Positions 4,064-27,835 of a stretch of DNA of 64,000 bases are shown piece by piece. The notes under the pieces were generated by a model. It saw only the letters and a program-made list of their open reading frames with translations. It was not told the DNA's origin and made no database searches. This DNA comes from Candidatus Liptonbacteria bacterium (GTDB lineage: Bacteria; Patescibacteriota; Minisyncoccia; UBA6257; 2-01-FULL-56-20). The stretch is from the NCBI GenBank assembly GCA_023244895.1, contig JAHFLL010000001.1, forward strand, positions 163 through 64,162, given 5' to 3'. How positions within the stretch are numbered: the stretch's first letter is position 1; each line of letters opens with the position of its first letter. The position numbers and the translations under genes are program-made.

Positions 4064-5281
4064 TTAGGGTAGGTTGAAGCTCTTTAGAATCGCGTCGCTT
4101 GCAACCGAAAAAGATTCAGTCCTGTTTTGCTGAGAGTTGTTACTGGAATACGAAGCTACTAGACCCACGATGTATCCCCTCCAGAAAAGAGGCGAACCGG
4201 AACGTCCGCGATATATTTCCATATTGGTCGCGATAACGAGTGGTGTGCTCGCATAGTAAACGTCTCCCACATAAACCTCCTTAACGTTTCCTAAGCTACC
4301 CGAGAGGTACATAGTGGAGAAAGAATCGTTGCGCGCCGCGCCAATATCTCCCGGGAAGCCAAAGGTAATAACCTGCTGGCCGGGTGGCATAACTCCGTTG
4401 ATGGGAATAATTTTCGCGTATGGGAACGAGGCGGGCACGCTACTGTATCCGAAGGTAGGACCATCCGCCGAGACACCGTTTATTTTGAGCAGAGCGAAGT
4501 CCGCGTATTGTTTTTCCAGGTCCGACAATCCCACGCTGAGAGAAATTTTTTCCACGCTCGCGGTGTAGGGCAAGACCGTAACCATCACCAAGGGATTAAC
4601 CGCGCGTATCTCATCCGGCGTAGGCAGGGTGGTGTTGGGCGGTACCACGCCTACCAGGCACTGTTTCAGGGAATAGGTAAAATTTCCGGACACATTACTT
4701 CCGTCTATGATCGTGCTTTGTATTCCACCCTCTTTTTTAACAACGTGCCGATTGGTTAATATTTTGCCATCCGCGGAAACAATCACGCCCGAGCCCTTGG
4801 ATTCCACCTCTCCTTGCGCGATAAGTTTGTCCGAAACCTGGTCCTTAATTGTGAGATCGAATTTGCATAATAACCCAACCACAGTTTGATGATTAATGGC
4901 AATTTCGGGAGGTAGTTTGGGAGTAGCATTCTCGGGAGTGCTGGTAGGGCTCACCAATTTATTTTCCGGTAAAACGGGAACCTCTATTTTCTCCGGGACA
5001 ACTATTTTGGGCGGGGCTTGTTTGGCGGTAGTTGTAGCGGGAATATTATTTACGGGGGCGCTAGGTGTGCTAGTGGTAGTGCTGGTGAAAATAGGTTTTT
5101 CCACCTCGCTTCCCCTCTCCTCTTCCGTGGTTGTACTCGCGTTGTTTTGTGCGACCACTTCAGTTTGTTGCGCGGGCGCACTCTCAATTGGGATCTTTTT
5201 CTGAATTATTAAAACATAGCCCAACGCGACCACAATTGCGCCAGCTAGTAGAAAAGAAATTATTTTTTCCCAGATAAGCAT
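4064..5281 (-). CDS. membrane-anchored trypsin-like (S1/HtrA-like) serine protease
   Basis: The protein has an N-terminal TM helix, a Thr/Ser/Pro-rich linker, GSGVIVSADGKILTNRHVV (His region) and GRSGSPLF (Ser nucleophile region). Confidence 0.7.
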   Translation of the reverse strand: MLIWEKIISFLLAGAIVVALGYVLIIQKKIPIESAPAQQTEVVAQNNASTTTEEERGSEVEKPIFTSTTTSTPSAPVNNIPATTTAKQAPPKIVVPEKIEVPVLPENKLVSPTSTPENATPKLPPEIAINHQTVVGLLCKFDLTIKDQVSDKLIAQGEVESKGSGVIVSADGKILTNRHVVKKEGGIQSTIIDGSNVSGNFTYSLKQCLVGVVPPNTTLPTPDEIRAVNPLVMVTVLPYTASVEKISLSVGLSDLEKQYADFALLKINGVSADGPTFGYSSVPASFPYAKIIPINGVMPPGQQVITFGFPGDIGAARNDSFSTMYLSGSLGNVKEVYVGDVYYASTPLVIATNMEIYRGRSGSPLFWRGYIVGLVASYSSNNSQQNRTESFSVASDAILKSFNLP

Positions 5282-5357
5282 AACCTCTCCATTATAGCGG
5301 AAATAATAAGGTCGGGAGTATCATTGCTAAAACGCTCACTAGTGTTAATCTTTTTGT

Positions 5358-7127
5358 ATGAATAGCCAGAGTAAGCAGTGTCAGAATTGTAAATCCGATT
5401 TTACTATTGAATCCGAGGACTTTGCATTTTACGAGCGCATAAAGGTCCCCCCTCCGACCTTCTGTCCGGATTGTCGCCGGCAACGGCGCATGGCATGGCG
5501 TAACGAGAGGTCAATTTATCGCGCAAGTTGTTGTTTGTGCGGAAAAGCGATACTGACAATGTATCCCGAAGAATCGGGCGTGCAGTCTACCTGCCGGGAA
5601 TGTTGGTGGTCCGACTCCTGGGACCCCTTAAGTTATGGCGCGGACTATAATCCGGATAAAACTTTTTTCGCGCAGTTTTCTGAACTTGCCAAAAGGGCGC
5701 CGAGCCTGGCGCTATCCAATGTTGATTGCGTGGACAGCGACTACAGTAATTTCACCGCCTATAATAAAAATTGCTACCTGGTGTTCGGTAGCGGTTTTAA
5801 TGAGAACGTTCGGTATAGTAGGGCCTTGCGGTGCAGGGACTCCCAGGACTTGTTCGTGGGTAACAGCTGTGAGCTGTGTTACGAGTGTACGAATTGCTCC
5901 GATTCATACCGCCTGCTTTTTAGCTACAATTCCGAGAATTGTTCCGATTCCTATTTCTTATATAACTGCAGAAATTGTTCAAATTGTCTGGGCTGCATTA
6001 ATTTAGTCGATAAGTCCTATTGTATTTTCAATCAGCAATATAGCAAAGAAGAATATTCAAAAAAGATTGCGGAGTTGGAGCTCGGCAAATATTCGAGCCT
6101 GTTGAATCTGGAGGATAAGATTAAAAAAGAAGTGGTTTTAAAAGGGATACATAAATTCGCGAATATAGTGGCTTCTTCCCAGACAACCGGGGACAACATA
6201 AGGAATTCCCAAAATTGTCATTTCTGCTTCGATACTCTGGAAGATGTGCAAAATTGCAAATACTTGTATTACTGTACCGAACTTAAAGATTCTTATGATG
6301 GGATAGGTCAGTATAGGATGGAATTAGGGTACGAGAACGTGGACTGCAATGTAAGTAGCTCCGTCTTGGGTGGAATAACCATATACGACTCCAATAACAT
6401 TAGGTATTCCAAGAACTGCCACAACTGCAGTAATCTATTCGGTTGCGTTAACTTACGTAAAAAACAGTATTGTATTTTAAACAAGCAATATTCCAAAGAA
6501 GAATATGAACGGTTGATTTCTGAAATAATCGGGCAGATGAACTCCAATCCGTATTTGGATTCGAAAGGAAGAAAGCACGCTTATGGAGATTTCTATCCTA
6601 TTGAGCTGTCGCCATTTCCCTATAACCAAACCATAGCCCAGGAATACGCATTTCTGGATAAGGGTCTCGCATTAACCAATGGATACAAGTGGGAAGAACA
6701 TAACGATAAAAACTACGAGACAGATCTAACCTCCCTGGACTTACCGGATACCATAGCGGACGTTTCCGATAAGATTCTAAACCAGGTAATACAATGCGAG
6801 CATCTAGGGACCTGTGGTGAGCAATGCACTACCGCTTTTAAGATAATACCAGGGGAACTTCAGTTTTATAGAAAAATGAACTTACCCCTTCCTCGACTTT
6901 GTCACAATTGCCGCCACTACAAGAGGTTGAGGCAGCGTAATCCTCTTAAGCTCTGGTCTCGCAAGTGCCAGTGCGCAGGCCAAAAATCGGAGAATGGAAT
7001 TTATCAAAACACCATTGCTCACCCCCATGGCACGGATCGCTGCTCCAACGAATTCCAAACTTCTTATTCTCCCGACCGTCCGGAGATTGTGTATTGTGAA
7101 AATTGTTATCAAGCAGAAATCGTTTAG
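5358..7127 (+). CDS. cysteine-rich tandem-repeat protein (about 55 Cys; CxxC/NCxNC modules), function unknown
   Basis: The 589-aa ORF is divergent from the protease gene. It has an internal duplication in which both halves end ...NCxNCSNLxGCxNLxxKxYCIxNxQYSKEEY. The N- and C-terminal zinc-ribbon-like CxxC...CxxC segments mirror each other. There is no signal peptide. Confidence 0.65.
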   Translation: MNSQSKQCQNCKSDFTIESEDFAFYERIKVPPPTFCPDCRRQRRMAWRNERSIYRASCCLCGKAILTMYPEESGVQSTCRECWWSDSWDPLSYGADYNPDKTFFAQFSELAKRAPSLALSNVDCVDSDYSNFTAYNKNCYLVFGSGFNENVRYSRALRCRDSQDLFVGNSCELCYECTNCSDSYRLLFSYNSENCSDSYFLYNCRNCSNCLGCINLVDKSYCIFNQQYSKEEYSKKIAELELGKYSSLLNLEDKIKKEVVLKGIHKFANIVASSQTTGDNIRNSQNCHFCFDTLEDVQNCKYLYYCTELKDSYDGIGQYRMELGYENVDCNVSSSVLGGITIYDSNNIRYSKNCHNCSNLFGCVNLRKKQYCILNKQYSKEEYERLISEIIGQMNSNPYLDSKGRKHAYGDFYPIELSPFPYNQTIAQEYAFLDKGLALTNGYKWEEHNDKNYETDLTSLDLPDTIADVSDKILNQVIQCEHLGTCGEQCTTAFKIIPGELQFYRKMNLPLPRLCHNCRHYKRLRQRNPLKLWSRKCQCAGQKSENGIYQNTIAHPHGTDRCSNEFQTSYSPDRPEIVYCENCYQAEIV

Positions 7128-7191
7128 TAAAAATATTCCGAGCCGTTAGTCCCTATTATTTTGCTTTCCACATTTTCTACCTTCCACCCGA

Positions 7192-8721
7192 TTATTCTTC
7201 TCGTAAACGATAACTAAACGCTTCTGCCAAGTGTCCCGCGGAGACTTTTTCTTTTTCTTCCAGGTCCGCGATGGTTTGCGCAGTTTTGAGTAAGCGATAA
7301 TATCCGCGCGGAGATAATTTCGCCTTAGCTAGATTATCCATAAACTTCTGCGCTTCTAATTCTAATTCGATTAATTCTTCGGCCTGGCGGGAACTCATTT
7401 CGGAGTTGGTGGAAATTTTTAATCCCTTTTTGTTAAACCTCTCGCGTTGTTTAGAGCGCGCCTTCTCCACTTTGTCTTTTATCCCCGGACTGGTTTTTTG
7501 CTCCTCCGGCTTTTTGCGTAGCTCATCGTATTCCACCCGCAGAACTTTAAGCTGTAAATCAATTCTATCCATAAGGGGCCCCGAAATCTTTTTCTGATAA
7601 CGCACTACTTCATACGCGGAACACTTGCACTCTTTTTCCGGGTCGTTGTAGTAGCCACAGGGACAGGGATTCATAGCGGTTATAAGTGAAAATTTGGCGG
7701 GCAGAATTAGTGTGCCCTTGGCGCGCGCGATATGTACTAGCCCGCTCTCCAATGGCTGTCTTAGAGATTCTAAAATATTTTTTGGAAACTCCGGCAGTTC
7801 GTCTAGAAACAGAACTCCCCTATGAGCCAAGCTTATCTCGCCCGGACGCGGCACATTGCCTCCACCCACGACAGATATTAAAGACGCGGTCTGGTGCGGC
7901 GCGCGGAATGGTCGTTCATTAATTAGTCCGCCGGGATTAAGTCCCGCGGCACTATATATTTTCGTAACCTCAATCGCCTCTTCTCGGTCCGGTGCGGGCA
8001 GTATGCCGATTAAGGCTTGTGCCAGCAGGCTTTTACCGACTCCGGGCGGCCCCACCATAATCAGATTGTGCCCGCCCGCCGCCGCGATGATGAGCGCGCG
8101 CTTAGCGTGCTCCTGCCCTTTAATCTCCGAAAAGTCCGGCGCGCCCCTGCTCTCTCCCATGGCCTGCGAGAACACGGCAGGCTCCATTCTAATTCTCCCT
8201 TCTAATTCGCTCATTATCTCGGCCAAATCTTTCACTCCAAAGATTTCTACCCCCTCCACTACTGCCGCCTCGTTCGCGTTTTCTACCGGCAGATAAATTT
8301 TTTTGAAACCGGAGTTCTTCGCCATCTGCGCAATGCTTAAAACTCCGTTTACGGGTCGCAATCTGCCGTCCAAAGATAACTCGCCTAAAAATATTTTGTC
8401 TTTAGTTTCAAATTCCGAGATTTGTTTGGTGACCAAGAGATATGCCACAGCAATCGCGAGGTCATATTGCGAGCCGGTCTTTTTCACGTCCGCGGGCGCG
8501 AGATTGACCGTTATCTTTCTATTCTCGCGAGTCGGTGGTTTTACGCCCGCGTTCTTGAGCGCGGAGTTCACTCTTTCCTTCGCTTCATTCAAAGCCTTAT
8601 CCGCGAGTCCAACTATATTAAAAGAATGAAGGCCGACGTTTAAGTCGACCTCCACCTCAATCGGTCTCGCATGAATTCCTTCCAGTTCCGCGGAATAAAC
8701 TCTAGCGATCGTCTTGGACAT
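7192..8721 (-). CDS. comM: YifB/ComM family Mg-chelatase-like AAA+ ATPase
   Basis: The 509-aa ORF starts MSKTIARVYSAELEGIHARPIEVEVDL.... The central AAA+ Walker A is GPPGVGKS, and a C-terminal ChlI-like region is present. Confidence 0.85.
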   Translation of the reverse strand: MSKTIARVYSAELEGIHARPIEVEVDLNVGLHSFNIVGLADKALNEAKERVNSALKNAGVKPPTRENRKITVNLAPADVKKTGSQYDLAIAVAYLLVTKQISEFETKDKIFLGELSLDGRLRPVNGVLSIAQMAKNSGFKKIYLPVENANEAAVVEGVEIFGVKDLAEIMSELEGRIRMEPAVFSQAMGESRGAPDFSEIKGQEHAKRALIIAAAGGHNLIMVGPPGVGKSLLAQALIGILPAPDREEAIEVTKIYSAAGLNPGGLINERPFRAPHQTASLISVVGGGNVPRPGEISLAHRGVLFLDELPEFPKNILESLRQPLESGLVHIARAKGTLILPAKFSLITAMNPCPCGYYNDPEKECKCSAYEVVRYQKKISGPLMDRIDLQLKVLRVEYDELRKKPEEQKTSPGIKDKVEKARSKQRERFNKKGLKISTNSEMSSRQAEELIELELEAQKFMDNLAKAKLSPRGYYRLLKTAQTIADLEEKEKVSAGHLAEAFSYRLREE

Positions 8722-8734
8722 TTTATTCTCGCGA

Positions 8735-9067
8735 TTACTCTTTCTGCTTGCAGTTCTCGCACAATCTTGTTTCCGGTACCAGGTCTAATTCCCTTTCGGA
8801 TATCTGCCCTTGGCAGAATTCGCATTTGCCGTAATCCCCTACCAATATTTTAGCCAAAGCGGAATCTATGTCCGCGATGCGATCACGATAGGTGTGCGCA
8901 ACCGCGAGCTCATTAGAAAGATTCTCCGTCTCGTCCTGTTCTTCGGAATTGTCTTCCGTGTCATTGCCATAGTCGTCTCCTTTCTCATCTCCCTTCACCA
9001 TATCCAACAATTTAGCTCGCTCCGCTTCTAATTCTTCTTTATATGAATTTATCTTTTGCGCGTCCAT
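8735..9067 (-). CDS. DksA/TraR-family C4 zinc-finger protein
   Basis: The 110-aa protein has an N-terminal coiled coil. Its C-terminal CEFCQGQISERELDLVPETRLCENC matches the DksA/TraR Cx2C-x17-Cx2C finger. Confidence 0.7.
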   Translation of the reverse strand: MDAQKINSYKEELEAERAKLLDMVKGDEKGDDYGNDTEDNSEEQDETENLSNELAVAHTYRDRIADIDSALAKILVGDYGKCEFCQGQISERELDLVPETRLCENCKQKE

Positions 9068-9368
9068 AAATATTTATTATTGTATTTTTATTTATTAAAC
9101 CTCTATCGGAAAGCCTTGAAGTATTACCGAAGGATTTACTTAAGATTAAATGGTCTAGCAGGGTGGGTCAAGACGCGTAGCTGGAAATATGGAAATAAGC
9201 CGCCAAACAAAGGAGACCTCATAATTAATAGTATTCCGCTGTTGATAATTTTCCGTGCGATCAGCGAGACCATTTAATCTCTAATGGAAAAAGGCGGGAG
9301 TATGGGCTCAAAACCAACCAACTACTCCCCACAGAGGTCAAAATTCATAAAATAGGCTGCTTGGCGAC

Positions 9369-9441
9369 TTATCCCCATTCGGCAATTCGGCAAACGGGAC
9401 AACTGTGGATAACTTGTTGGATAACCCGGCAGTTATCCCCA
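9369..9441. promoter_or_regulatory. cluster of four DnaA-box-like 9-mers (TTATCCCCA x2, TGTGGATAA perfect, TTGGATAAC)
   Basis: I read these directly at 9369-9377, 9404-9412, 9417-9425 and 9433-9441. They sit inside an 860-bp ORF-free divergent intergenic region that also holds several ATTCGGCAAT/ATTGCCGAAT palindromes and an AT-rich stretch. Confidence 0.35.
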
Positions 9442-9545
9442 TGATTCGGCAATGCTATTCGGCAATTGCCGAATTAGACCATATAGAACTTGGCGATTGC
9501 CGAATTAGGCTAAAAACCCGGCAATTTATATATTTTGCCGGATTC

Positions 9546-9890
9546 TGACAAACATTTTTGTTTGTCAGAGCCTAAAAGCGCCATTTTTGACAAACAAAAG
9601 TGTTTGTCAGCGTAAAAAGTGTTTAGCGACAAACATTTTAGACAAAATGGGTCCGTAGCGGATGTTTAGCGACAAACATCCGCTATGTAGTGGTTGGTGA
9701 GATGTATCGGGAATATGATCGGTCTTTATCTGCAAAATAGCCTCTTGATATGTCTTCTGACTTAATTATCGCTGTCATAGGTGTTTGTCGCCAAACATAT
9801 TCAACAAATAAATTTAATGGTCGTATTTATTGTTTAGCGACAAACATTTTTAACGCGACAAGTGCGTTTTTTGTGTTTAGCGCTAAACAT
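9546..9890. repeat. array of at least 7 imperfect/perfect palindromes of type TGTTTAGCGACAAACA (TGTTT-N6-AAACA), operator-like
   Basis: Copies sit at about 9546, 9589, 9622, 9662 (extended palindrome GCGGATGTTTAGCGACAAACATCCGC), 9782, 9832 and 9873 (perfect TGTTTAGCGCTAAACA). Spacing is irregular at 32-120 bp. Confidence 0.6.
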
Positions 9891-9925
9891 CTGACACGCG
9901 ATTTAGTTTGTTTTAATATATAGTA

Positions 9926-10297
9926 ATGAGTAACTCGGAGGTAGGTAGGTTAGGCGAGGACCTGGCCTGCCGGTATCTAGAAAGGAATAGATATAGCGTA
10001 ATTGCCCGGAACTATCTTATTAAAAGAGTGGGGGAGCTGGATATTGTGGTTAAAGACAAATCCGGCATATTGGTCTTTGTGGAAGTCAAAACAATGTCCC
10101 CGGGGGAGCTAAAGCCCGAGGACCAATATTCTTTTGCGAAGAGAACTAAAATGACTCGCGCTTGCGAGGTTTTTCTGGCCAAGTATTCGGAATTAGTGAG
10201 CGATAGGGCGGGTTGGCGTATGGATTTAGTTGCAGTTGAGCTACCAGATCCAGAGGTCTCGGAGAAACCGAGAATCCGTCACTACCAGAACGTATAA
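9926..10297 (+). CDS. yraN: YraN/UPF0102 family endonuclease-like protein
   Basis: The 123-aa protein has GRLGEDLACRYLERNRYSVIARNY...DIVVKDKSGILVFVEVKT, the typical YraN core. Confidence 0.75.
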   Translation: MSNSEVGRLGEDLACRYLERNRYSVIARNYLIKRVGELDIVVKDKSGILVFVEVKTMSPGELKPEDQYSFAKRTKMTRACEVFLAKYSELVSDRAGWRMDLVAVELPDPEVSEKPRIRHYQNV

Positions 10298-10412
10298 TTG
10301 ACATAATTCGGCAAGTGTGTTTTAAATAAAATCAGAAAACGAGCGGCCCATTCCCGCTTGATAACAATCCAAGTTGGTGAATGGGGCCGACCTATTGGTT
10401 AGGAGTTTCGCC

Positions 10413-10790
10413 ATGAAGATTCTCGTCGTTGATGATGAGGCTGCTATTCGCGGTATCGTGACGCGCTGGCTCGAAGCCGCTGGTCATGAATCCTGGGCAG
10501 CGGTTAGCGCCGAGCAGGCCGTTGAAGAGCTGGAGTGCATAACTCCGGCTGTTGTCGTGAGCGACATCGAGATGTCCGCTCGCAACGGGTTCTGGTTGGC
10601 GGAAGAGATTGGCCGTCGATGGCCCAACACAGCAGTCATTCTGATGACCGGCTGTTTGGACGCGGGTATGGCCAGGCGGAGCATGAGTACGGGCGCGATT
10701 GACTATCTGCGCAAGCCATTCACGCGCGACCAGCTCGTGGCCTCCGTCAGTCGCGCGTTGCTCTGGCACCATTCACGAGTCGCTTCGTAA
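10413..10790 (+). CDS. stand-alone response-regulator receiver (CheY-like) domain protein, on high-GC island
   Basis: MKILVVDDEAAIRG..., the phospho-acceptor Asp region VVVSDIEMSARNG and ILMTG...K are present. A GGAG RBS lies upstream. No output domain or kinase is nearby. Local GC is about 62%. Confidence 0.7.
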   Translation: MKILVVDDEAAIRGIVTRWLEAAGHESWAAVSAEQAVEELECITPAVVVSDIEMSARNGFWLAEEIGRRWPNTAVILMTGCLDAGMARRSMSTGAIDYLRKPFTRDQLVASVSRALLWHHSRVAS

Positions 10791-10820
10791 TCGTAAACGG
10801 CAATCCAGGGAGGATATGTT

Positions 10821-11423
10821 ATGCGTTCGATTCTCGTGCTCGTCTTCGTGCTCATACTCGTGTCTGTGCCCGCAGTTGGCCAGACGTTGGCAACGGCCGA
10901 GACGGCTGGCTCCGGTAAGACCGCCGTCGTCGGCATGTACGACCGCGATTACGCGGGCGCATGGTTGGACGGCAGATTCGCGTTCGTGCGCGGCCTGTCC
11001 GACAGCTTCGACCTGTACCTGCTGACCGGACACACCAGGGTCGGCGGGGAGGGTCAGTGGTTTATCGCTGGGGGCGGCAACCTCCACCTTCTAGGGTGGC
11101 AGGGGACGCACCTGGCCGTGAACCCCATGATCGCTACCCCGGTCACGAATCGGAACAAGGCGTCCGTGGCGTGGTTCAACCCAGCGCTCATCGTCAGCCA
11201 GCGTCTCGTCGGAACCAAGCTCATCGCCTACGCGGCGGCGAATGTGGTGGTCCCGCTGGGCAAGACAGAGCGGGGCGTGTTTACCCCCGCGGAGACGTAT
11301 GTAAACTGGCCAGTTGGTCTCGCGGCCACCTTCGGCCAGTGGTCGGTTCTCGCAGAGTTCGACATCGGCGGGGAAAAGACCAGGGCGGTCGCCATTGCCG
11401 TGGCCTACCTACTGCCCAAGTAG
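10821..11423 (+). CDS. secreted hypothetical protein (signal peptide, beta-rich), high-GC island
   Basis: The signal peptide is MRSILVLVFVLILVSVPAVGQ, with a GGGAGG RBS. The protein ends with an aromatic-terminal-like ...AVAYLLPK. Confidence 0.5.
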   Translation: MRSILVLVFVLILVSVPAVGQTLATAETAGSGKTAVVGMYDRDYAGAWLDGRFAFVRGLSDSFDLYLLTGHTRVGGEGQWFIAGGGNLHLLGWQGTHLAVNPMIATPVTNRNKASVAWFNPALIVSQRLVGTKLIAYAAANVVVPLGKTERGVFTPAETYVNWPVGLAATFGQWSVLAEFDIGGEKTRAVAIAVAYLLPK

Positions 11424-11483
11424 GTGGAGCTACGGCCAGAGGAGGGTCCCGTTGCGCGCGGCGTAATGGGGCCTTTCTGTTTC

Positions 11484-11513
11484 TTGACGAATTTTTGTCT
11501 CCACTATAGTATG
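11484..11513 (+). promoter_or_regulatory. candidate sigma70-type promoter for nusA (TTGACG ... TATAGT)
   Basis: TTGACG at 11484 and TATAGT/TAGTAT about 15-18 bp downstream. Two leader hairpins follow: GTCCGCccctgaaGCGGAC and CCCGTCTttcgggAGACGGG. Confidence 0.35.
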
Positions 11514-11618
11514 AAACTGTTGTGAGTCCGCCCCTGAAGCGGACATTATTTTTAAAAGGTTCGGACAATCCCGTCTTTCGGGAGACGGGTAAATAAAAAC
11601 TAAATAACAATTAAATAA

Positions 11619-12851
11619 ATGTTAAACGTAAAAGAGTTAGATAAGGCGGTTAAGCAGGTCGCGGAAGAAAAAGGTCTGGCGCCGGAGAGGGTAATGGAGG
11701 CGATTGAGTCTTCCATCGCGGCGGCCTACAAAAAAGAGTATGGCACGCGCGGGGAGTTAATTCGCGCCAAACTGGATATGAAATCCGGTGATTTAAACTT
11801 TTGGCGCATCAAAACCGTAGTGGACGAGACCACGGTTCGTTTTCCGGATCCAAATGCGGAAGAAGAAATAGAAGAGGGGAGCAGCGAAAATTCCAAGGCT
11901 CAAGTGGAGGAAGTAATTGAAGAAGACGATGAAACCAAATTGCCCCGCTTCAACCCGGAACGGCACATCTTACTCGCGGAAGCGAAGGAGATAAAAAAAG
12001 ACGTGGCGCTTGGAGAAGAAATGAGTTTTCCACTGGAGACCCACGAAGAGTTCGGACGCATCGCGGCACAGGCCGCCAAGCAGGCCATCTTCCAGCGCTT
12101 GCGTGAATCGGAGCGCGAATCAATTTTGACGGAGTGGAAAGAAAAGGACGGTCAGATAGTGAGTGGCACCGTGCAGAGATTTGAGCGGGGGAATGTTTAT
12201 ATTGACCTCGGACGCGCGGTGGGCGTGATGTTCGCGAACGAATCCATCCCGGGCGAGCACTATCGCAACGGTGAACGTTTGCGCTTTTTGGTTACGGCGG
12301 TGCAGGAAGATACGCGTTTGCCGGGCATAATTCTTTCTCGCTCCCATCCTAAGTTTGTGGCAAAGCTTTTTGAAATGGAGGTGCCGGAAGTTGCGGATGG
12401 CGCGGTGGAAATAAAAATGATTACGCGTGAGCCAGGCAGTCGCACCAAGGTTGCCGTTGTCTCGCACGTGGATGGAGTAGACCCGGTGGGTGCCTTAGTT
12501 GGTCAGCGCGGTACGCGGGTAATGGCCGTTAACAACGAATTAGGCCAGGAAAAGATAGATATTATTGAGTATTCTGAGGATATTGAAAAATTCATCGGCA
12601 ACTCTCTCTCGCCTGCCAAAACAAAATCAGTGGAGATTTTGGACAAGCGGGAAGCGCGGGTATATGTCGCGGAAGATCAGCTGTCTTTGGCCATTGGCCG
12701 AGGGGGACAGAATGTGCGTTTGGCGGCCAAGCTGACCGGCTGGAAAATAGACGTGCGCTCTCAGTCCCGTCCGGAAGATGTGCAAGAGGGAGGAGTCGGC
12801 GCGGTAGATTCTGAGGAAGAGGTCGAATCGGAAGATAAGGAGAATTCTTAA
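11619..12851 (+). CDS. nusA: transcription termination/antitermination factor NusA
   Basis: The 410-aa ORF has the NusA N-terminal domain, an S1 domain and two KH domains ([21 protein letters not shown]). There is an acidic insertion after residue 80 and an acidic C-terminal tail. Confidence 0.9.
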
Positions 12852-12883
12852 TTTCCACTAGAGTCAAAATAAAAAACAAAAAT

Positions 12884-14887
12884 ATGAATCCAAATATTTT
12901 GTATCTCGGAGCGGCGGTAATCTCAATACTATTTAGTGGTGGGCTGATCGGAATCTTGCGCAAGAGCCCGAGAGGAGATGAAAAGATGTTGGCCATTCAG
13001 TCGGCTATTCGGGAAGGATCCAAGAGCTATCTCCGCCGGCAGAATAAAACGGTGGCGGCAGTGGCGCTTGTAATCGCGATCGTGCTTTATTTCGCGATGG
13101 ACTGGAAAACATCCCTCGGTTTTGTGCTGGGAGCATTCGCTTCCGCGCTGGCGGGTTATCTTGGAATGATGACCGCGGTAGATACCAATGCCCGCACTAC
13201 CGAAGCGGCCAAGTCCGGAATTGCGAAGGCCTTTCGGGTGGCGTTCTTGGGTGGTTCGGTTACTGGTTTCCTAGTAGTCGGTTTGGGGCTTCTGGTCACA
13301 GGAGGCTTCTATTATATATTCCGGGACGCACAGGCCTTAACAGGCTTGGCTTTCGGTAGCTCTCTCATTTCTGTTTTCGCGCGCTTGGGTGGTGGAATAT
13401 TTACCAAGGCTGCGGATGTGGGCACGGATATGGTCGGTAAAATTGAAGCCGGAATTCCGGAAGACGATCCGCGCAACCCGGGTGTTATCGCGGATAACGT
13501 TGGCGACAACGTGGGGGATTGCGCTGGTATGGCAGCGGATTTGTTTGAAACTTACGCGGTGACTTTGACCGCGGCGGTTCTCTTGGGTTGGGCGGGTATG
13601 ACGGAGGGTCAGGTGGTGTTCCCGTTTGTTCTGGGTGGCCTGGCGGTTATAGCTTCAATCCTAGGCACGCTTTTTGTGAGACTCGGGAAAGATGGCGGGA
13701 TTATGAAGGCGCTCTACAAGGGCCTGGCAGTTACAATTGTTGCTTCCGCAATCTTATTCTATTTTGCGGCTAAGTTTTTCTTCGGAGACTCTCTGGATGG
13801 TATTGGCTATATGGATGTCTTCGTGGCGAGCCTGGTTGGCTTAGCGGTTACGATACTGATGGTATTGGTAACCGATTACTACACCGCCAAGAAGTACCGT
13901 CCCGTAAAGAGCATCGCGGAAGCTTCCAAAACCGGACATGGCACCAATATTATTATTGGTCTCGCGGTCGGAATGGAATCCACCTTCTTGCCGATACTTA
14001 TAATAGTAGGCGGAATTTTGACGGCTTATAGCTTGGTGGGTGTTTATGGTATCGCTATCGCGGCAGTTAGCATGCTTTCGGTCGCGGGCGTGATTGTGGC
14101 GATAGATTCTTTCGGTCCCATCACCGACAACGCGGGTGGCATCGCGGAAATGACCGGCGCGCCGGAAAATGTGCGCGAAGCGACAGACGCCCTAGACGCG
14201 GTCGGCAACACCACCAAAGCGATTACTAAGGGTTACGCGATTGCATCCGCCGGCTTAGCCGCTCTGGTTCTCTTTGGCGGATACACGGAAGAGCTGGCTA
14301 AGAAATTCGGCGCAGACGCGGTGGATGGATTCTTCCGCTTGAGCGATCCCATGACCCTGGCGGGACTTCTAATCGGCGCGGCCATTCCTTATCTTTTCGG
14401 TTCCATGGCCATGCGTGCGGTCGGTAAAACGGCGGGCGTGCTGGTGGTAGAGATTCGCAGGCAGTTCCATGAGATTAAGGGAATTATGACTCACGAACAG
14501 AAGCCGGAGTACGGCAAGGCGGTAGATATTGTAACCAAGGCGGCTTTGCGCGAAATGGTCGCGCCCGCTCTGGTTGGAATAATAATCGTGCCTATTGTAG
14601 GTTTTGGCTTAGGTGCGAACGCGTTGGGCGGACTACTAATCGGAACTATTGTTTCCGGCTTATTCGTAGCTATCTCTATGACCTCCGGCGGAGCCGCTTG
14701 GGACAATGCCAAGAAGTATATTGAAGCCGGCAATTTCGGAGGTAAGGGCTCGGAGGCCCACAAGGCGGCCGTAACGGGAGACACTGTCGGCGATCCTTAT
14801 AAAGACACCGCTGGTCCGGCTATCAATCCCTTAATCAAGGTCATCAACATCGTAGCCCTGCTGTTAGTAAAATTCCTGCGGGGTTAA
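12884..14887 (+). CDS. hppA: membrane-bound proton-translocating pyrophosphatase (H+-PPase)
   Basis: The 667-aa polytopic membrane protein carries [25 protein letters not shown] and other H+-PPase signature motifs. Confidence 0.9.
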
Positions 14888-15478: not shown

Positions 15479-15513
15479 TAAGCAGATAGTAGTAAGTAGT
15501 AGGTAGTGTTGGT

Positions 15514-15552
15514 AAAAACAAATAGCCCCGCGCATGCGGGGTTATTTGTTTT
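15514..15552 (+). terminator. rho-independent terminator after clpP
   Basis: The hairpin is aaaacaaataGCCCCGCgcatGCGGGGttatttgtttt, followed by a T-tract. Confidence 0.6.
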
Positions 15553-15651
15553 CTGTTCCCTCAAAAAGTTATTGACATTGTTTCCATAAAAATATAAAAA
15601 CTATACAGGGACTGGGACGGACCTGGTCTTTTTTCGTTGGAGGGGCTCAGG

Positions 15652-16068
15652 ATGGCGAACGTAAAGGGAAAGATGGACGAGGGTAGGCATGGAGAGTTGC
15701 GGGCCATGTTGGAAGAACTTTTGACCAAATTCCGGACCGATACCCGGGATAAGGTCAGAAGGGCTCGTCCGCAGGATGGCGACCGTCGTATTGGCGCAAC
15801 CGACGATGATCCGCCGGAAGACCTGGAGCGCGGGGTGATTCTCGCGACGGCACAGGTCGCATCGGAAATGGCTAGTGCCGTGGGGCAAGCCTTGGCGCGA
15901 CTGGAGGAGGGCGCCTACGGCTTCTGCTGCGATTGTGACGATGACATCTCTCCCGCCCGGCTCCGGGCACTGCCGTTCGCTGTGCGCTGTACGGACTGCG
16001 AGAGGATTCGTGAGCAAGGAAAAGAATGGGAACGGCGCGAGACTCCGACCTCGTTGTTCCTCCAATAG
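15652..16068 (+). CDS. DksA/TraR-family C4 zinc-finger protein (second paralog, on high-GC island)
   Basis: GAYGFCCDCDDDISPARLRALPFAVRCTDCE matches the TraR/DksA finger, and a GGAGGGG RBS sits upstream of the ATG at 15652. The island is about 65% GC, so I discount the overlapping opposite-strand ORF. Confidence 0.55.
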   Translation: MANVKGKMDEGRHGELRAMLEELLTKFRTDTRDKVRRARPQDGDRRIGATDDDPPEDLERGVILATAQVASEMASAVGQALARLEEGAYGFCCDCDDDISPARLRALPFAVRCTDCERIREQGKEWERRETPTSLFLQ

Positions 16069-16146
16069 ATGCGGCGAGCGTGGCGTGGGCCCGGGTGCGT
16101 AATGCGCCCGGGCTCCTAAATTTATCGGCACCTATTTATTTATCGA

Positions 16147-16944
16147 TTAAACCTGGGATATAGTTTTATTCTTTATATCCATATCTAATCTTTTGGCTTC
16201 CGCCCAGGCCAGCTCGTAAATCTCTTTCATTGCCTCCGCTATTTCCTGACTTTCTATTATAATGCCCAACTTTTCCCGCCAGGAGGCAATCATAACCTTA
16301 TTGTCGTAGATATTTATCTCCGGAGAAAAATGGAACTTGTCCGCCGGCACCAAGGCCGTCTCGCGCGACTCATCCTTATCTTGACTGGCCCTTTCCATTC
16401 CCGCGGGATTGGCGGGAATTATGGCGCGAATTGAAATCCCCTTACCGGCCCGCCGTTTATAATATTGTGGGAAGTAGTGTGGTAGAGCTCCATGCATGTC
16501 CTCTATGCTCGCGAAAGCCCTTATCGACTCGCGTGATGTTAGAGTGTCTTCATAAACTTCTTCCATCCCCTCTGTGCCCTCATGGAAGATAACTCTCGGC
16601 CTGGCCCCTTTCTGATAGATGGACTTAAGCTCGGGTACTAATTTTTGGGCGATAGACATGTGTTCTTGACCGCGAGCAACCTCATCTTGAAGAAGCTTGA
16701 GTATCTTTTCGGGGTCCTCGGCGGTGTATTGCTGTTTAGGTTTCTTGCCCGAGACAGAAATCATTTCTCGTGCGACCAAGTTGTCTAAAATACTGTATCC
16801 AGTGGTGCGATTAATTCCCGCCTTGCGGGTGATTTCAGTTACCGTGCCCTGACCCATCTCTAGAATCGCCAGATAGACCATGGCCATTCTAGCCTGGAGA
16901 CCAAGCGAGATGAGTTGTTTTTGAAGGGGGGATTCTTGGGCCAT
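16147..16944 (-). CDS. TrmB-family transcriptional regulator (N-terminal winged HTH plus sugar-binding-like C-terminal domain)
   Basis: The 265-aa protein has an N-terminal LAILEMGQGTVTEITRKAGINRTTGYSILDNLV helix-turn-helix typical of TrmB. Confidence 0.6.
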   Translation of the reverse strand: MAQESPLQKQLISLGLQARMAMVYLAILEMGQGTVTEITRKAGINRTTGYSILDNLVAREMISVSGKKPKQQYTAEDPEKILKLLQDEVARGQEHMSIAQKLVPELKSIYQKGARPRVIFHEGTEGMEEVYEDTLTSRESIRAFASIEDMHGALPHYFPQYYKRRAGKGISIRAIIPANPAGMERASQDKDESRETALVPADKFHFSPEINIYDNKVMIASWREKLGIIIESQEIAEAMKEIYELAWAEAKRLDMDIKNKTISQV

Positions 16945-17042
16945 ATTGTCTATATCTTATACCTATCCCAGCATTGTGTCAATTACTATCAACAAAACAT
17001 CATATAATCCTTGTATTTATTGACTAAAACAGACGTAAGTGC

Positions 17043-17071
17043 TTGACAAGGATATTGGAGCGTGCTATAAT
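17043..17071 (+). promoter_or_regulatory. consensus sigma70 promoter TTGACA-17-TATAAT
   Basis: TTGACA is at 17043-17048 and TATAAT at 17066-17071, with an exact 17-bp spacer. It drives a leader of about 480 nt upstream of the liv operon. Confidence 0.55.
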
Positions 17072-17557
17072 AGGCGCAAGATTGAAGATAGTCTTCGATC
17101 TAGCACCTTGAGAGGCGATGATGCTAGTAAGACTACTCAGATTCACTACCCTAGAGTGCGGTTGCGTCGTAGGACTATACAAGGAGCTTGGCTCTCCTAA
17201 GAAAGTGGCATTTATCGAGGAGAAGGGTTGGGGATGTAGGGCGCATAGGCGCAACCGCCGAATCTCCGAAGATCGGCTTGCAAGAGACGAGGATGCCCAT
17301 CTCTCGTGTCGGCCAAAGTGAAGACGACCTTGCGTCCATTCCTGAGAGAGCAAGGCATGAAGTTGGCCCCGACAACCCAAGTTCGTCGGGGCTCCTACCT
17401 CGGATCATTAACCCCAGAAATTAGTGATTCGAGCCGGGAGGGAAATCCTCAAAAGGTCATAGACAGATAAAAACCAAAATAGTAATATCACACATATAAA
17501 GGTTCGCGTTCCCCGAGGTAGTAAAGGTCATTTGGTTAGATAATATAAACAAGCATT

Positions 17558-18691
17558 ATGAATAAAACAACAAAAATAATATTGGGCGTAGTGGCAGTCG
17601 TGTTGTTGGTTTGGATTGTGGTGGCGAGCAATGGCTCTCAAAATAACTCCGAAATTAAAGTTGGCGTGATTTTGCCTCTTTCCGGAGACGCGGCGAGCTA
17701 TGGCGAGCCCTGGCGTAACGTATTTGATATGACGGCAGAGGAAATAAATAATGCGGGAGGCATAGACGGCAAAAAATTAGTACTGATAGTTGAGGACGGT
17801 AAATGCTCTGGTAAAGATGGCGCTTCCGCAATGGAAAAGTTGGTTAACATAGATAAGGTGCAGGTGGTTTTAGGTGGCTCTTGTAGTAGTGAATCTTTGG
17901 GCGCGGAACCCATCGCGACCAGGGCTAAGGTTCTGCTTTTCTCCGCGGTTTCCAGCAGTCCTGACCTGACCGGCAAGAGCAAGTTTTTCGTGAGGGATTA
18001 TCCCAGCGACTCCGCGCAGAGTAAGGTTTTGGCGGAATTAGCCATACAAAAAGGTTGGAAAAACGTAGCTTTTATTCAGGAGCAAACAGATTTCGCGGTG
18101 GCGCTTCATAAATCATTTACGGACAACTTTCAGGCAGAGGGAAGAACTGTTTCTAAAGAGGAATTTCCTAAGGATACAGCAGACTTCAGGACGATTATAG
18201 CTAAAGTGCGCGCCGGCAATCCGGACGCGGTGTTTGTGGATGTGCAGACCGCTATGGCTGGAGAGAGGATATTCAAGCAGATGCAAGAGATAAGCTGGAA
18301 GCCGAACTTGTTATTGTCGGACCCAGCTATGGGCGACGGGCAGATGCTAGAGAAGAATAAGGTCTTTTTAGAAGGTGCTTTCGGTGCGGAGTTCGTAATA
18401 GATCCTCAGAATACCAAGCTACAACACCTACTTGAAGCGTATAAGGCTAAGTTTGGTAAGGATGTAGAGTATCAGAGTTATGCCCAGGCCATCTACGACC
18501 AAGTATATCTACTAAAGGATGGGATAGAGGCGGTTGGATATAATGGAGAGAAGCTTGCGGGTTGGTTGCGTACAGTGAATAATTGGCAGGGCGCCTCCGG
18601 CTCCATTACCATCGGAGCCGATGGCGATCGAGTGAGCGCTCATTCCTTGGAGATTGTCCGGAGTGGCAAGGCCGAAAGAGTGATAGAATAG
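17558..18691 (+). CDS. livK: branched-chain amino acid ABC transporter substrate-binding protein (LivJ/LivK family)
   Basis: The 377-aa protein has an N-terminal anchor and KVGVILPLSGDAASYG...GGSCSSE, typical of the type I periplasmic-binding protein family. Confidence 0.8.
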   Translation: MNKTTKIILGVVAVVLLVWIVVASNGSQNNSEIKVGVILPLSGDAASYGEPWRNVFDMTAEEINNAGGIDGKKLVLIVEDGKCSGKDGASAMEKLVNIDKVQVVLGGSCSSESLGAEPIATRAKVLLFSAVSSSPDLTGKSKFFVRDYPSDSAQSKVLAELAIQKGWKNVAFIQEQTDFAVALHKSFTDNFQAEGRTVSKEEFPKDTADFRTIIAKVRAGNPDAVFVDVQTAMAGERIFKQMQEISWKPNLLLSDPAMGDGQMLEKNKVFLEGAFGAEFVIDPQNTKLQHLLEAYKAKFGKDVEYQSYAQAIYDQVYLLKDGIEAVGYNGEKLAGWLRTVNNWQGASGSITIGADGDRVSAHSLEIVRSGKAERVIE

Positions 18692-18752
18692 TAGTAGAGA
18701 AACGAAACAAAAAGGGCTGGGCCATTACTCGGACGTCGGCTCCAGCCCTCTT

Positions 18753-19637
18753 TTGTTTAGTTTGATTAATATGGACTATCTGGCGCAGTTTACTCTAAAT
18801 AGCATCATCAATGGCGCGCTCTACATCCTAATTACCTTAGGATTCAATTTGATTTACGGGGTGACAAAGTTTGTGAATATTAATCATGGAGCGATAGCAG
18901 TGGTGGGTGGCTACACCACCTACTATCTATTTCGGGTGTTGGGCTGGCAGGTTTCGGTCAGTATAGTTTTAGGAGTTTTAGTGGCGGGACTACTGGGATT
19001 GCTCTTAGACCGAATCGTTTTTCGTTATCTAAGAGAAAATAAATCATCTAACGTGACCCAGTTTATCGCTTCTCTAGGTTTATTTACCATAACCCAATCA
19101 GTGTTAGCGATAGTGTTCGGATCTCAGTTGTGTTCCTTGATGGGAGACGGTCCAGCGCGTCCCTATAATATCTTCGGGGGATTTTTAACTAGCGTGCATC
19201 TAGCCACGATTATCTCCGCTCTCTTAGCTGTCTTTTTTATGTTTTTACTCCTGCGTTATACCCGCTTCGGCAAGATAGTTCGAGCCCTAAGCGACGACGA
19301 AGAAGTCGCGAAAATTATGGGTATTAATACCGGTCAGGTAATTGGTTGGGTTGTCTTTATCGGCTCTGCGCTGGCAGGTCTAGCCGGCGTGCTGGTGGGC
19401 TTTGATCTAGGTATATATCCCGCCATGGGTCTAATTATATTAATGAGCGGAATAATCGCCTCCATTATTGGTGGTATAGGAAATTTCTACGGCGGAGTTT
19501 TGGGTTCTATCATCTTGGTCGTGATAGAAAACTTAGGGATGGTGGTTTTCCCTAGCGAATGGCGCATGGCAGTGGCTTTCGCTGTTTTGGTTCCATTTTT
19601 AATCTGGCGACCACAGGGTATTTTGGGTAAAAAATAA
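18753..19637 (+). CDS. livH: branched-chain amino acid ABC transporter permease LivH
   Basis: The 294-aa polytopic protein shows LivH-type permease conservation (INHGAIAVVGGYT...). Confidence 0.85.
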   Translation: MFSLINMDYLAQFTLNSIINGALYILITLGFNLIYGVTKFVNINHGAIAVVGGYTTYYLFRVLGWQVSVSIVLGVLVAGLLGLLLDRIVFRYLRENKSSNVTQFIASLGLFTITQSVLAIVFGSQLCSLMGDGPARPYNIFGGFLTSVHLATIISALLAVFFMFLLLRYTRFGKIVRALSDDEEVAKIMGINTGQVIGWVVFIGSALAGLAGVLVGFDLGIYPAMGLIILMSGIIASIIGGIGNFYGGVLGSIILVVIENLGMVVFPSEWRMAVAFAVLVPFLIWRPQGILGKK

Positions 19638-19638
19638 T

Positions 19639-20505
19639 ATGGAATACCTGCTCCACATTCTCATATATTTTGCCATTTACGCGCTTTTAGGGATCAGTCT
19701 TAATCTAATAGCGGGTTATACGGGACTTTTATCCATTACTCACGCCTCTTTCTTTGGAATTGGTGCCTACGCAGTGGCAATCTTGACCACTCAATTCGGG
19801 CTAGGCTTCTTTGGTGCCGCCTTAATAGGCATGGTTCTCGCGGGAATAGGCGGGCTAATTATAGGCTGGGTTTTATCTCGTCTAAGCGGAGACTACTATA
19901 TGTTGGGGACGGTTGGCTTTAGCTATATTATCTTCGCGATAATGATGAATTGGTCATCCCTAACCCGTGGGCCCCTAGGAATTCCCGCGATTCCAAGGCC
20001 CAGTCTGTTCGGCCTGGGGCTTGGCGACAATCTAAAACTGTTTCTACTCCTATTGTTTGTACTCCTAGTGATATATCTTTTAAGCAGAAAATTGGTTGCC
20101 TCTTCTTTTGGTCGGGTTTTGCGGGCCATTCGGGAGGATGAGAATGCGTTACGGGTGTTTGGTTATGAAACCACAAATTATAAACTAGCTATTTTCGCGA
20201 TAGCGGCCGGAATGGCGGCTATGGCCGGAGCCTTTCTTGCCACTTATATTACATTTGTTGACCCGCTTAGTTTCACCATAATGGAGTCCGTGTTCATTAT
20301 GTCTATAGTCATTTTTGGGGGATTCGCCAGCTTAGAGGGTTCTCTCTTGGGCGCGTTTCTCTTGGTCCTTTTGCCGGAATTACTGCGCTTTATGGGTCTA
20401 CCCTCCGAGATTGCTGGCCACGTACGGCAGGGCGTGTACGGACTACTTCTGGTTTTGTTTATGATGTACTGGCCGAAGGGATTAATGGGAAAATATAAAG
20501 TATAG
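19639..20505 (+). CDS. livM: branched-chain amino acid ABC transporter permease LivM
   Basis: The 288-aa permease is translationally coupled to livH. Confidence 0.85.
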   Translation: MEYLLHILIYFAIYALLGISLNLIAGYTGLLSITHASFFGIGAYAVAILTTQFGLGFFGAALIGMVLAGIGGLIIGWVLSRLSGDYYMLGTVGFSYIIFAIMMNWSSLTRGPLGIPAIPRPSLFGLGLGDNLKLFLLLLFVLLVIYLLSRKLVASSFGRVLRAIREDENALRVFGYETTNYKLAIFAIAAGMAAMAGAFLATYITFVDPLSFTIMESVFIMSIVIFGGFASLEGSLLGAFLLVLLPELLRFMGLPSEIAGHVRQGVYGLLLVLFMMYWPKGLMGKYKV

Positions 20506-20506
20506 A

Positions 20507-21238
20507 ATGGATATTCTGGAAATAAGAAAAATCAAAAAAAGATTCGGAGGAGTTTTGGCGCTAGACAGCCTATCTTTAACTATCCGCAAAGGTGAGATTA
20601 CGGCAGTCATTGGACCGAACGGTTCTGGTAAGTCCACCCTGATCAATCTTCTGACTGGAGTTGTGCCTTGGGATCAGGGCGTGGTGGCAATAGATGGAGT
20701 ATTAATCAGTGAGCTGTCTATGGAAGAGGTGGCGGAATATGGTATCACTCGGACGTTTCAGGAAGTGCGGTTGTTTGAGCAGATAACAGTTTTGGATAAC
20801 ATCTTAGTCATTCTGACTAGTCGGAGCTTATGGGGATCAATTTTAGAACGTCACAGCAAGCTTCATTTAAAACAGGCCGAAGACGTTTTAAAGACGGTCG
20901 GTCTCTGGGATAAGCGTGGGGATTTAGTTGTAAATCTGTCTTATGGTCAACGTAAGTTATTAGAAATTTCCCGCGCCCTAGCCATGAAGGCAGAGATATA
21001 TTTATTTGACGAACCCTTCGCGGGCCTATTTCCGGAGATGACCAAGTTGGTTGCCTCGGTTTTGGAGGGTCTGCGCGTCCAGGGCAAGACAGTAGTTTTA
21101 ATAGAGCACAATATGGACTTGATTCGGCAGTTATCCGACTGGGTATGTGTCTTAGATGGTGGCACGCTTCTCGCGGAAGGTCGCCCAGAGGTAGTGCTTT
21201 CCCAAAGAGAGGTAATTGAGGCCTATCTGGGCGACTAA
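20507..21238 (+). CDS. livG: branched-chain amino acid ABC transporter ATP-binding protein LivG
   Basis: Walker A is GPNGSGKST, the ABC signature is LSYGQRKLLEI, and Walker B is IYLFDEP. Confidence 0.85.
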   Translation: MDILEIRKIKKRFGGVLALDSLSLTIRKGEITAVIGPNGSGKSTLINLLTGVVPWDQGVVAIDGVLISELSMEEVAEYGITRTFQEVRLFEQITVLDNILVILTSRSLWGSILERHSKLHLKQAEDVLKTVGLWDKRGDLVVNLSYGQRKLLEISRALAMKAEIYLFDEPFAGLFPEMTKLVASVLEGLRVQGKTVVLIEHNMDLIRQLSDWVCVLDGGTLLAEGRPEVVLSQREVIEAYLGD

Positions 21239-21239
21239 T

Positions 21240-21962: not shown

Positions 21963-22020
21963 CTAATAAGCGTTTTATAAAAACGAAAACAGCCGCGGGC
22001 GCGTGGCCGGCGGACTGTTT

Positions 22021-27833: not shown

Positions 27834-27835
27834 CA

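Follow-up and report, generated by a model that had tools for sequence, protein, structure and literature searches.

A GC-rich, probably horizontally acquired islet with a lone response-regulator receiver and a predicted β-barrel between yraN and nusA of a Patescibacteria genome

We analyzed the region between yraN and nusA in a 64-kb stretch of bacterial DNA, hereafter the window, within which all coordinates are counted. The window belongs to a contig of 840,672 bp, and its host is a Patescibacteria (candidate phyla radiation, CPR) bacterium of the "Ca. Liptonbacteria" group with a small genome of roughly 0.84 Mb; the closest homologs of its NusA are named Ca. Liptonbacteria, Paceibacterota, or Patescibacteria. 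The two flanking genes, already named in a first-pass annotation of the window, were both assigned by Pfam. On the left is yraN (UPF0102; 9926 to 10297, plus strand; PF02021, E = 6e-19; GC content 47.3%) and on the right nusA (11619 to 12851, plus strand; NusA_N and KH_5; GC content 51.9%). The spacer between them, from the yraN stop codon on the left to the nusA promoter on the right, is occupied by a GC-rich islet of 1152 bp (10330 to 11481, plus strand), which carries a gene for a 125–amino acid response-regulator receiver (10413 to 10790, plus strand) and a gene for a 200–amino acid signal-peptide protein predicted to form a transmembrane β-barrel of about 10 strands (10821 to 11423, plus strand).

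The limits of the islet come from blastn and a manual comparison of the junctions with the closest relative (L007, GCA_964529845.1; NusA 98.5% identical at the amino acid level), and the earlier limits, 10330 to 11470, nearly match them. Homology to L007 extends up to position 10329 and resumes at 11482; where the window has 1152 bases, L007 has 55 unrelated ones, with yraN and nusA adjacent. In three further relatives with NusA about 92% identical (L008, L009, and L010), the slot is empty and nusA directly follows yraN. The yraN gene of the window could be aligned with those of L007, L008, and L011. Thus, the proposal of a foreign stretch between conserved host genes was borne out, and the islet, being missing from L007 to L010, does not show the conservation in all relatives that would speak against horizontal gene transfer (HGT). 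Both junctions are also present in an independent assembly: the Logan contig L006 (6692 bp, run SRR14366791) is 100% identical to window positions 6783 to 13474, and both islet proteins are encoded exactly by four contigs of different size classes.

The islet differs from its host in composition. The overall GC content of the window is 48.5% (300-bp windows: mean 0.485, SD 0.055), while the run from 10401 to 11500, the second-longest high-GC run of the window, has 61.5% and peaks at 65.7%, an excess of 13 points for the islet. These values agree with the GC-rich island between yraN and nusA that had been reported before. The sliding-window and codon usage checks that the first-pass annotation had proposed likewise marked it as deviant. 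In tetranucleotide composition, its distance from the window average corresponds to z = 4.0 (rank 8 of 630 windows of 1.1 kb), and only the region at 34.4 to 36.0 kb deviates more strongly (up to 7.6 SD). The tetranucleotide profile of the islet is uncorrelated with that of the rest of the window (r = 0.04) and correlates with those of Vicinamibacterales-type loci of ~70% GC (r about 0.79); for L001, L002, L013, and L012, r is 0.78 to 0.80. The GC content at third codon positions (GC3) is 54.0 ± 3.6% in 19 host genes, 67.5% in the receiver gene, 82.1% in the barrel gene, and 87 to 92% in homologs from donor-type loci. The excess over the host is thus 13 points (3.8 host SD) for the receiver and 28 points (7.9 host SD) for the barrel. 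As had been noted, the high GC content also creates overlapping open reading frames (ORFs) of 100 to 180 amino acids on both strands.

The first gene starts with ATG at 10413, seven nucleotides downstream of a Shine-Dalgarno sequence (AGGAG, 10401 to 10405). Its product matches PF00072 (E = 4.2e-22; 78.9 bits against a cutoff of 30.2), with residues 3 to 112 covering positions 1 to 110 of the 111-position profile. The receiver domain fills the 125–amino acid ORF, which stops at 10790, and there is no output domain; the only NCBIfam matches are to the N-terminal receiver part of multidomain regulators, all far below the cutoffs. This agrees with the earlier description of a stand-alone receiver. 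Residues D7, D8, D51, T79, and K101 occupy alignment positions that do not vary among 16 members of its clade, and we take them to be the canonical acidic pair, phospho-acceptor aspartate, threonine, and lysine. From these features, the protein looks like a working single-domain response regulator. Likewise, no kinase had been seen nearby, and none was detectable in the 64-kb window: HisKA and HATPase_c were absent from the window ORFs scanned against Pfam, and no second receiver was detectable in the window.

We found the closest relatives of the receiver, among 5.8 billion proteins, in a tight clade (P0003 to P0022) with 65 to 71% identity; beyond it, identities fall to 56%, 53%, and then 39% or less. 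When each GTDB species was represented by one genome, a single close match emerged, from an uncultured member of the Vicinamibacterales (Acidobacteriota; 69%), the next being 43%. The clade relatives that we examined sit in contigs of 70 to 71% GC. Thus, the earlier suggestion of a high-GC donor stands for the receiver, as its close relatives occur only in contigs of ~70% GC, but the lineage put forward then, Actinobacteria, does not, because the named match is Vicinamibacterales. Nucleotide identity to the donor-type loci is 68 to 72% and is confined to the receiver ORF. The window protein agrees with 66 of 80 clade-invariant columns and most of the differences are conservative; three of them (P55S, G56A, and D58N) lie just C-terminal to the phospho-acceptor aspartate, and the 5- to 15-residue C-terminal tail of the clade is missing.

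In six loci (L001 to L005 and L013, the last from Vicinamibacterales), the clade receiver is placed between two genes for pseudopilin-like proteins of ~200 amino acids, which give weak or faint matches to the Pfam family T2SSG (GspG-type), and a divergent PAS-HisKA-HATPase-REC hybrid kinase adjoins them. The gene order is conserved throughout: PAS hybrid histidine kinase, pseudopilin-like protein, single-domain receiver, second pseudopilin-like protein. This locus appears to be an uncharacterized control module of a pilus or pseudopilus. The window receiver shares with the clade the PF00072 fold, the conserved acidic pair, aspartate, threonine, and lysine, and a similar length; in contrast to the clade loci, the islet has neither pseudopilin-like neighbors nor a hybrid kinase.

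The second gene is preceded by GGGAGGA (10808 to 10814), six nucleotides ahead of its start. The N terminus of the product, MRSILVLVFVLILVSVPAVG directly followed by QT, reads as a hydrophobic signal sequence, and the family consensus at this point is AxAQ, in agreement with the signal-peptide protein annotated before. A word-indexed search returned only the protein itself. Only when 1.84 billion representatives were searched exhaustively with HMMER did its rare family appear, with 50 relatives of 24 to 44% identity, nearly all of ~200 amino acids with a signal peptide, and many or most ending in phenylalanine or tryptophan. The window copy ends in ...AVAYLLPK, with a tyrosine five residues from the end, and a few other members are also short-tailed. 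No match to the family was found in Pfam, NCBIfam, PHROGs, or the sequences of the PDB, and the barrel matched nothing among IMG/VR contigs, INPHARED phages, or PLSDB plasmids.

The AlphaFold2 model, computed from an alignment of 25 sequences (predicted local distance difference test, pLDDT, 85.1; predicted template-modeling score, pTM, 0.78), is all-β with about 10 long strands, most of which show alternating hydrophobic and polar faces. All top 50 Foldseek matches in the PDB are transmembrane outer-membrane barrels with template-modeling (TM) scores up to 0.56, including OmpG, KdgM, the COG4313 channel, the FapF barrel, NanC, and a designed 10-strand barrel. In a set of viral structures, the best matches are phage-encoded porin-like barrels of 181 to 213 amino acids (TM scores 0.62 to 0.68). 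We therefore predict that the product is a β-barrel of the outer-membrane or phage-porin type with roughly 10 strands. All family-invariant residues are kept in the window protein, which argues against advanced decay.

Most members of the barrel family are found in contigs of higher GC content, and the taxonomy of their carriers rests on the content of a few contigs. The nearest member, P0158 (about 41 to 44% identical), comes from a contig of 67% GC, and the TonB_C protein encoded alongside it implies that the carrier is a diderm. Another, P0165, lies on L141 (Logan contig from SRR28401763, 6198 bp) among genes for a T4-type baseplate and gp19 tail tube and an AcrVA2-like gene; thus, at least one member of the family is phage-borne. 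No conserved partner gene accompanies the barrel in L011, L012, L140, L141, or L142.

The same slot holds a barrel of this family in at least one further genome. In L011 (GCA_043801735.1, named Liptonbacteria; NusA about 89 to 91% identical), it contains a minus-strand gene of the TrmB family and a gene for a 199–amino acid barrel that is 35% identical to that of the window (E = 3e-34) and has a raised GC content (58%; GC3, 73%). The TrmB-family gene was considered as an ortholog of a TrmB-family gene of the window (16147 to 16944) and rejected at only 29% identity. A third member, 65% identical to the L011 copy, is encoded by the 1-kb contig L142, where a terminator, a TTGAC promoter, and a hairpin with a T-run come after it in the layout of the nusA leader; judged by this layout, it is probably in the same slot as the barrel of the window. 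From these comparisons, the slot is variable among relatives and the barrel family recurs there. In a neighbor-joining tree without support values, the L011 barrel is joined first by P0157 and P0160 and next by P0158, and is not sister to the window barrel, a topology that favors separate origins over vertical descent.

The flanks of the slot have diverged unevenly from L007. At identical residues, third positions differ by 9% in a gene for a 589–amino acid protein (5358 to 7127) and by 18% in comM, and by 35% in yraN and 29% in nusA. The amino acid identity of YraN to L007 is only 79%, as compared to 96 to 98.5% for the other three genes compared, so that YraN is nearly as diverged from L007 as from L008 (74%) and L011 (71%). 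Across window positions 4650 to 14466, this mosaic suggests recombination tracts centered on the variable slot. Such a pattern would be expected if diverged Liptonbacteria had swapped this slot, together with the sequences on either side, through homologous recombination, as we infer.

Together, these data make it likely that 10330 to 11481 is a genuine islet that a CPR genome acquired horizontally, in a slot that is empty or otherwise filled in close relatives. The observations above show that its composition is foreign and that the nearest relatives lack it, and they provide the phyletic affinity of the receiver, as judged by sequence identity, and a predicted fold for the barrel. Because neither a mobility gene nor a repeat is present, the DNA would have entered by illegitimate or flank-mediated recombination. 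The GC3 values lie between those of host and donor and the best identities are modest, which points to a transfer that was not recent and left time for partial amelioration, or to one that came via an unsampled intermediate of lower GC content. Thus, the horizontal acquisition proposed by the first-pass annotation is supported for this islet.

The two genes need not have arrived together. By our own estimate, their GC3 values differ by about three binomial standard errors, and none of the Vicinamibacterales-type receiver loci has a member of the barrel family within the 6 to 10 kb of flanks fetched; thus, the islet genes are not neighbors in any known source. The different GC3 values and the separate source contexts hint at two acquisitions rather than one unit, and scatter from gene to gene within a donor could also explain the former. 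The earlier description as a two-gene unit therefore holds in that there are two intact ORFs, each with a Shine-Dalgarno sequence, but it does not require that one unit was transferred.

Several observations weigh against acquisition. The best identities to donor-type sequences are only about 70% for the receiver and about 44% for the barrel, so that an actual donor is missing and both the route and the direction of the transfer are deduced indirectly. The islet ends bear no integrase, transposase, or terminal repeat, no tRNA gene lies within 15 kb, and flanking direct or inverted repeats do not exceed chance, so that the sequence shows no trace of an insertion mechanism. Candidate target-site duplications or flanking repeats were short chance matches only, for example, AATGGGGCC at 10380 and 11465. 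A tblastn search of the 64-kb window with two donor-type hybrid kinases matched only the receiver itself. The GC contents at first and second codon positions (GC1 and GC2) of both genes are also ~8 to 11 points above those of host genes, and amino acid composition accounts for part of the excess GC; the barrel family is, moreover, GC-richer than its own contig in L140 and L141. CPR bacteria are generally regarded as having neither an outer membrane nor the β-barrel assembly machinery (BAM), and for this reason both islet genes may be functionless passengers. Last, the barrel at the slot in L011, and probably in L142, allows an older residence followed by loss in L007 and L008 in place of a gain in the lineage of the window. 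It also makes the history of the barrel in the Liptonbacteria clade more complex than a single insertion.

This last point can be extended into an alternative in which the barrel is an old resident of the slot, a fast-evolving or often replaced cassette for an envelope protein, akin to a replacement-type flexible genomic island, that L007 and L008 to L010 have lost, with the receiver, or neither gene, being gained. The L011 barrel directly upstream of the nusA promoter, with its 35% identity (E = 3e-34), and the leader-like sequence that follows the barrel of L142 fit such a history. So does the jump in divergence between window and L007 at the slot (9% and 18% on the left; 35% in yraN and 29% in nusA), which suggests recombination tracts. 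However, a GC3 of 82% would be hard to keep through long vertical descent in a genome with a GC3 of 54%, the window and L011 barrels are not sisters in the neighbor-joining tree, and there are only three CPR cases, of which L142 is not proven to be CPR. Traces of a shared past were also missing: the terminators behind the barrel genes of the window, L011, and L142 lack significant similarity to one another, and no terminator remnant that would signal a deletion shows in the 55 bases of L007 (in both comparisons, local alignment scores were not above those of shuffles, P about 0.15 to 0.97). We consider this history unlikely.

A more far-reaching scenario, to which we assign a very low probability, would make the slot, beside the replication origin, a dedicated site for exchangeable cassettes, in which CPR cells of the Liptonbacteria type retain a secreted outer-membrane-type barrel obtained from diderm hosts or their phages. 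The Vicinamibacterales-type receiver, which is tied to pseudopilins in the donor clade, would mark the physical host and plug into the CPR type IV pilus. If true, the barrel would be a channel or an anti-adsorption shield in the outer membrane of the host or in the CPR envelope, and the islet would tell which lineage hosts an uncultured CPR group and point to a new tool of epibionts.

It is extremely improbable that the high GC content is intrinsic to native genes encoding an alanine-, glycine-, and valine-rich barrel and a receiver. The elevated GC1 and GC2 of both genes agree with this explanation, as does the barrel family being GC-richer than the surrounding contig in L011, L140, and L141. 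Yet the GC excess is greatest where codons can change synonymously, at their third positions (13 points, 3.8 host SD, for the receiver and 28 points, 7.9 host SD, for the barrel), both genes are missing from the closest relatives, and outside the ~70%-GC clade no receiver relative exceeds 56% identity among the 5.8 billion proteins. The chance that assembly or binning joined DNA of a high-GC organism into the CPR contig, as the abrupt change of composition at both islet ends and the metagenomic source of the genome might suggest and as the first-pass annotation had allowed, is practically negligible, and on the assemblies compared we consider a chimera excluded, short of read-level proof, because the independent Logan contig is identical over 6.7 kb across both junctions and a chimera would take a pair of wrong joins at a distance of 1.15 kb, both falling precisely into the gap from a stop codon to a promoter; the two proteins moreover recur in four contigs, their GC3 is intermediate between host and donor, and the exact genes are in no sampled high-GC genome (best matches, 71 and 44%).

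The acquired islet would fit into the transcription of its surroundings without disturbing nusA. At its left edge, a GC-rich hairpin (AGCGG-N7-CCGCT, 10342 to 10358, found by a terminator scan and by folding 10330 to 10412) is terminator-like on the minus strand only. A TTGACA site at 10298 to 10303, conserved in relatives, lies just outside, and transcription may enter the islet from there or by read-through from yraN, with both genes being translated from their own Shine-Dalgarno sites. An intrinsic-terminator-like hairpin with an 18-bp stem and a U-rich tract (11440 to 11478, plus strand; −33.3 kcal/mol, z = −3.1) closes the islet directly ahead of a nusA promoter-like site in host sequence (TTGACG-17-TAGTAT, 11484 to 11512, plus strand). 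Transcription would stop at this hairpin and leave the regulation of nusA untouched. The host sequence further includes a leader hairpin followed by a T-run upstream of nusA (GTCCGC-CCCTGAA-GCGGAC, 11526 to 11552, plus strand), which L007 and L008 share unchanged and L011 almost unchanged, and for which L142 has an analog. It resembles a leader attenuator, possibly for autoregulation by NusA.

The receiver would work through contacts with other proteins after an unlinked kinase or a small phosphodonor has phosphorylated it, and the donor context suggests that it might be linked to the control of a pilus or pseudopilus. The Sec pathway would export the barrel, which would then stay in the cell envelope or be set free from it. 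Its part in the cell could be that of an envelope component or of a protein handed to a diderm partner, or it could be a passenger in decay.

The barrel shares its signal peptide, its all-β antiparallel build, and its length of ~180 mature residues with small outer-membrane barrels (KdgM/NanC, OmpG, COG4313, and FapF) and with phage barrels such as the lambda Lom-type morons, and Foldseek assigns it a probability of 1.0 to small outer-membrane or phage porin-like barrels. It differs from them in having ~10 strands rather than 8, 12, or 14, in ending with ...AYLLPK and not with an aromatic residue, and in its host lineage, which is not known to have an outer membrane. Outer-membrane barrels borne by phages and other mobile genetic elements that block phage adsorption are known (bioRxiv 10.1101/2025.02.28.640651).

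The slot can also be compared with flexible genomic islands of the replacement type. As in these, a fixed site has different contents (empty, response regulator plus barrel, or TrmB-family gene plus divergent barrel), and deviant composition and locally raised divergence of the flanks are found at yraN-nusA as well; in contrast to them, the cassettes are tiny, and five or six genomes were sampled here. Replacement-type islands usually encode exposed components of the envelope.

HGT into CPR bacteria is already documented, and the islet is a new instance of a known event with an unusual cargo. A study on HGT in groundwater Patescibacteria likewise describes small foreign segments in streamlined CPR genomes, with donors that include unrelated diderm phyla (Gios et al., mSystems 2025, PMC12455944). 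Acidobacteriota, however, occur nowhere in the text of that paper, and a receiver with an outer-membrane-type barrel is not among the functions that its available portions describe; the present islet, moreover, has no mobility genes and measures only 1.15 kb. Less ordinary are the affinity of the receiver to a Vicinamibacterales-type clade, an unannotated barrel family of the outer-membrane type in a presumed monoderm, the repeated presence of this family at the slot, and the position of the slot ~400 bp from an oriC-like spacer. With the only close relatives of the receiver in the Vicinamibacterales-type clade and the junctions verified, the islet provides a concrete hypothesis on partner organisms. 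It also tests assumptions about the envelope, as two or three related genomes of a presumed monoderm lineage have an outer-membrane-type barrel at one and the same site: either these barrels are decaying passengers, or CPR cells use them in an unexpected way. For annotation, our results flag a previously unannotated family of ~200–amino acid barrels and carry a warning that short GC-rich islets yield many spurious ORFs in this genome, which may be misleading.

The spacer mentioned above is AT-rich and non-coding, extends over 860 bp (9068 to 9925), and ends ~400 bp to the left of the islet. The large annotated genes of the block to its left are almost all on the minus strand and those of the run to its right on the plus strand. 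It contains the minimum of the cumulative G–C curve of the window and 4 of its 15 DnaA-box-like 9-mers, one of which (at 9404) is the sole perfect TTATCCACA, together with at least five copies of the palindromic motif TGTTTAGCGACAAACA and repeats of ATTCGGCAA. Judged by these features, the spacer resembles a replication origin. An Rfam search of 9000 to 11700 (E up to 1) returned only chance microRNA-like matches to a hairpin at 9545 to 9610. A LAGLIDADG homing-endonuclease gene is located just to the left of yraN in L007 (5087 to 5563) and L010 (4695 to 5153), at a position corresponding to about 9640 to 9925 of the window, and is missing in the window, L008, and L009. As only some of these sequences contain it, the origin-proximal spacer is itself variable.

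The islet is one of several GC-rich patches in the window. All those listed by the first-pass annotation (15.6, 22.7, 34.5 to 35.9, 44.2 to 44.7, and 45.2 to 45.7 kb) were recovered in the GC profile, which has further ones at 29.3 to 29.7 kb and, inside comM, at 7.8 to 8.2 kb. Thus, a pattern of several small GC-rich inserts is real, but the patches are unrelated in sequence: as candidate copies of one element they were rejected, since blastn-short and tblastx comparisons among eight patches gave only chance 13-mers. The further claim that they are inserted between conserved genes was checked for the patches at 10.3 and 22.7 kb and for that at 15.6 kb, which lies at the edge of a 6.5-kb indel. 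At least two patches, those at 22.7 and 44.3 kb, contain no convincing ORF.

The patch at 22719 to 23103, located just upstream of tyrS, has 385 bp of high GC content where L008 has 54 bp. It lengthens the tyrS ORF by ~100 spurious codons, starting from a TTG at 22840, and the real start of tyrS is probably near 23146. The region from 15479 to 21973 (6.5 kb) is missing from L008; it includes a GC-rich ORF for a DksA/TraR-like zinc-finger protein (15637 to 16068) and also carries genes for a TrmB-family regulator, a periplasmic binding protein, and a branched-chain amino acid ABC transporter. The strongest compositional outlier of the window (34635 to 35777, minus strand; tetranucleotide z = 7.6; GC up to 76%) encodes an alanine- and proline-rich protein of 380 amino acids, which carries a membrane anchor at its C terminus, has the motif LALCV in duplicate within its signal peptide, and matches no Pfam or NCBIfam family. 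Its gene (GC, 68.5%; GC3, 84.5%) lies ~240 bp from tRNA-His at 36017. Two further patches gave no family match: the first (44334 to 44700) is GC-rich and has no ORF with a coding-like GC periodicity, and the second (45209 to 45712, minus strand) encodes a signal-peptide protein of 167 amino acids with a glycine-rich segment and a GC3 of 72%. A metagenome scan with the phosphoenolpyruvate-utilizing enzyme encoded at 39647 to 42091 returned nothing closer than 67 to 70% amino acid identity and thus yielded no close relative that spans the patches at 34.5, 44.3, and 45.2 kb. The window also encodes a tRNA-Ile with the anticodon UAU (27760 to 27834), which is, to our knowledge, an uncommon way for bacteria to read AUA.

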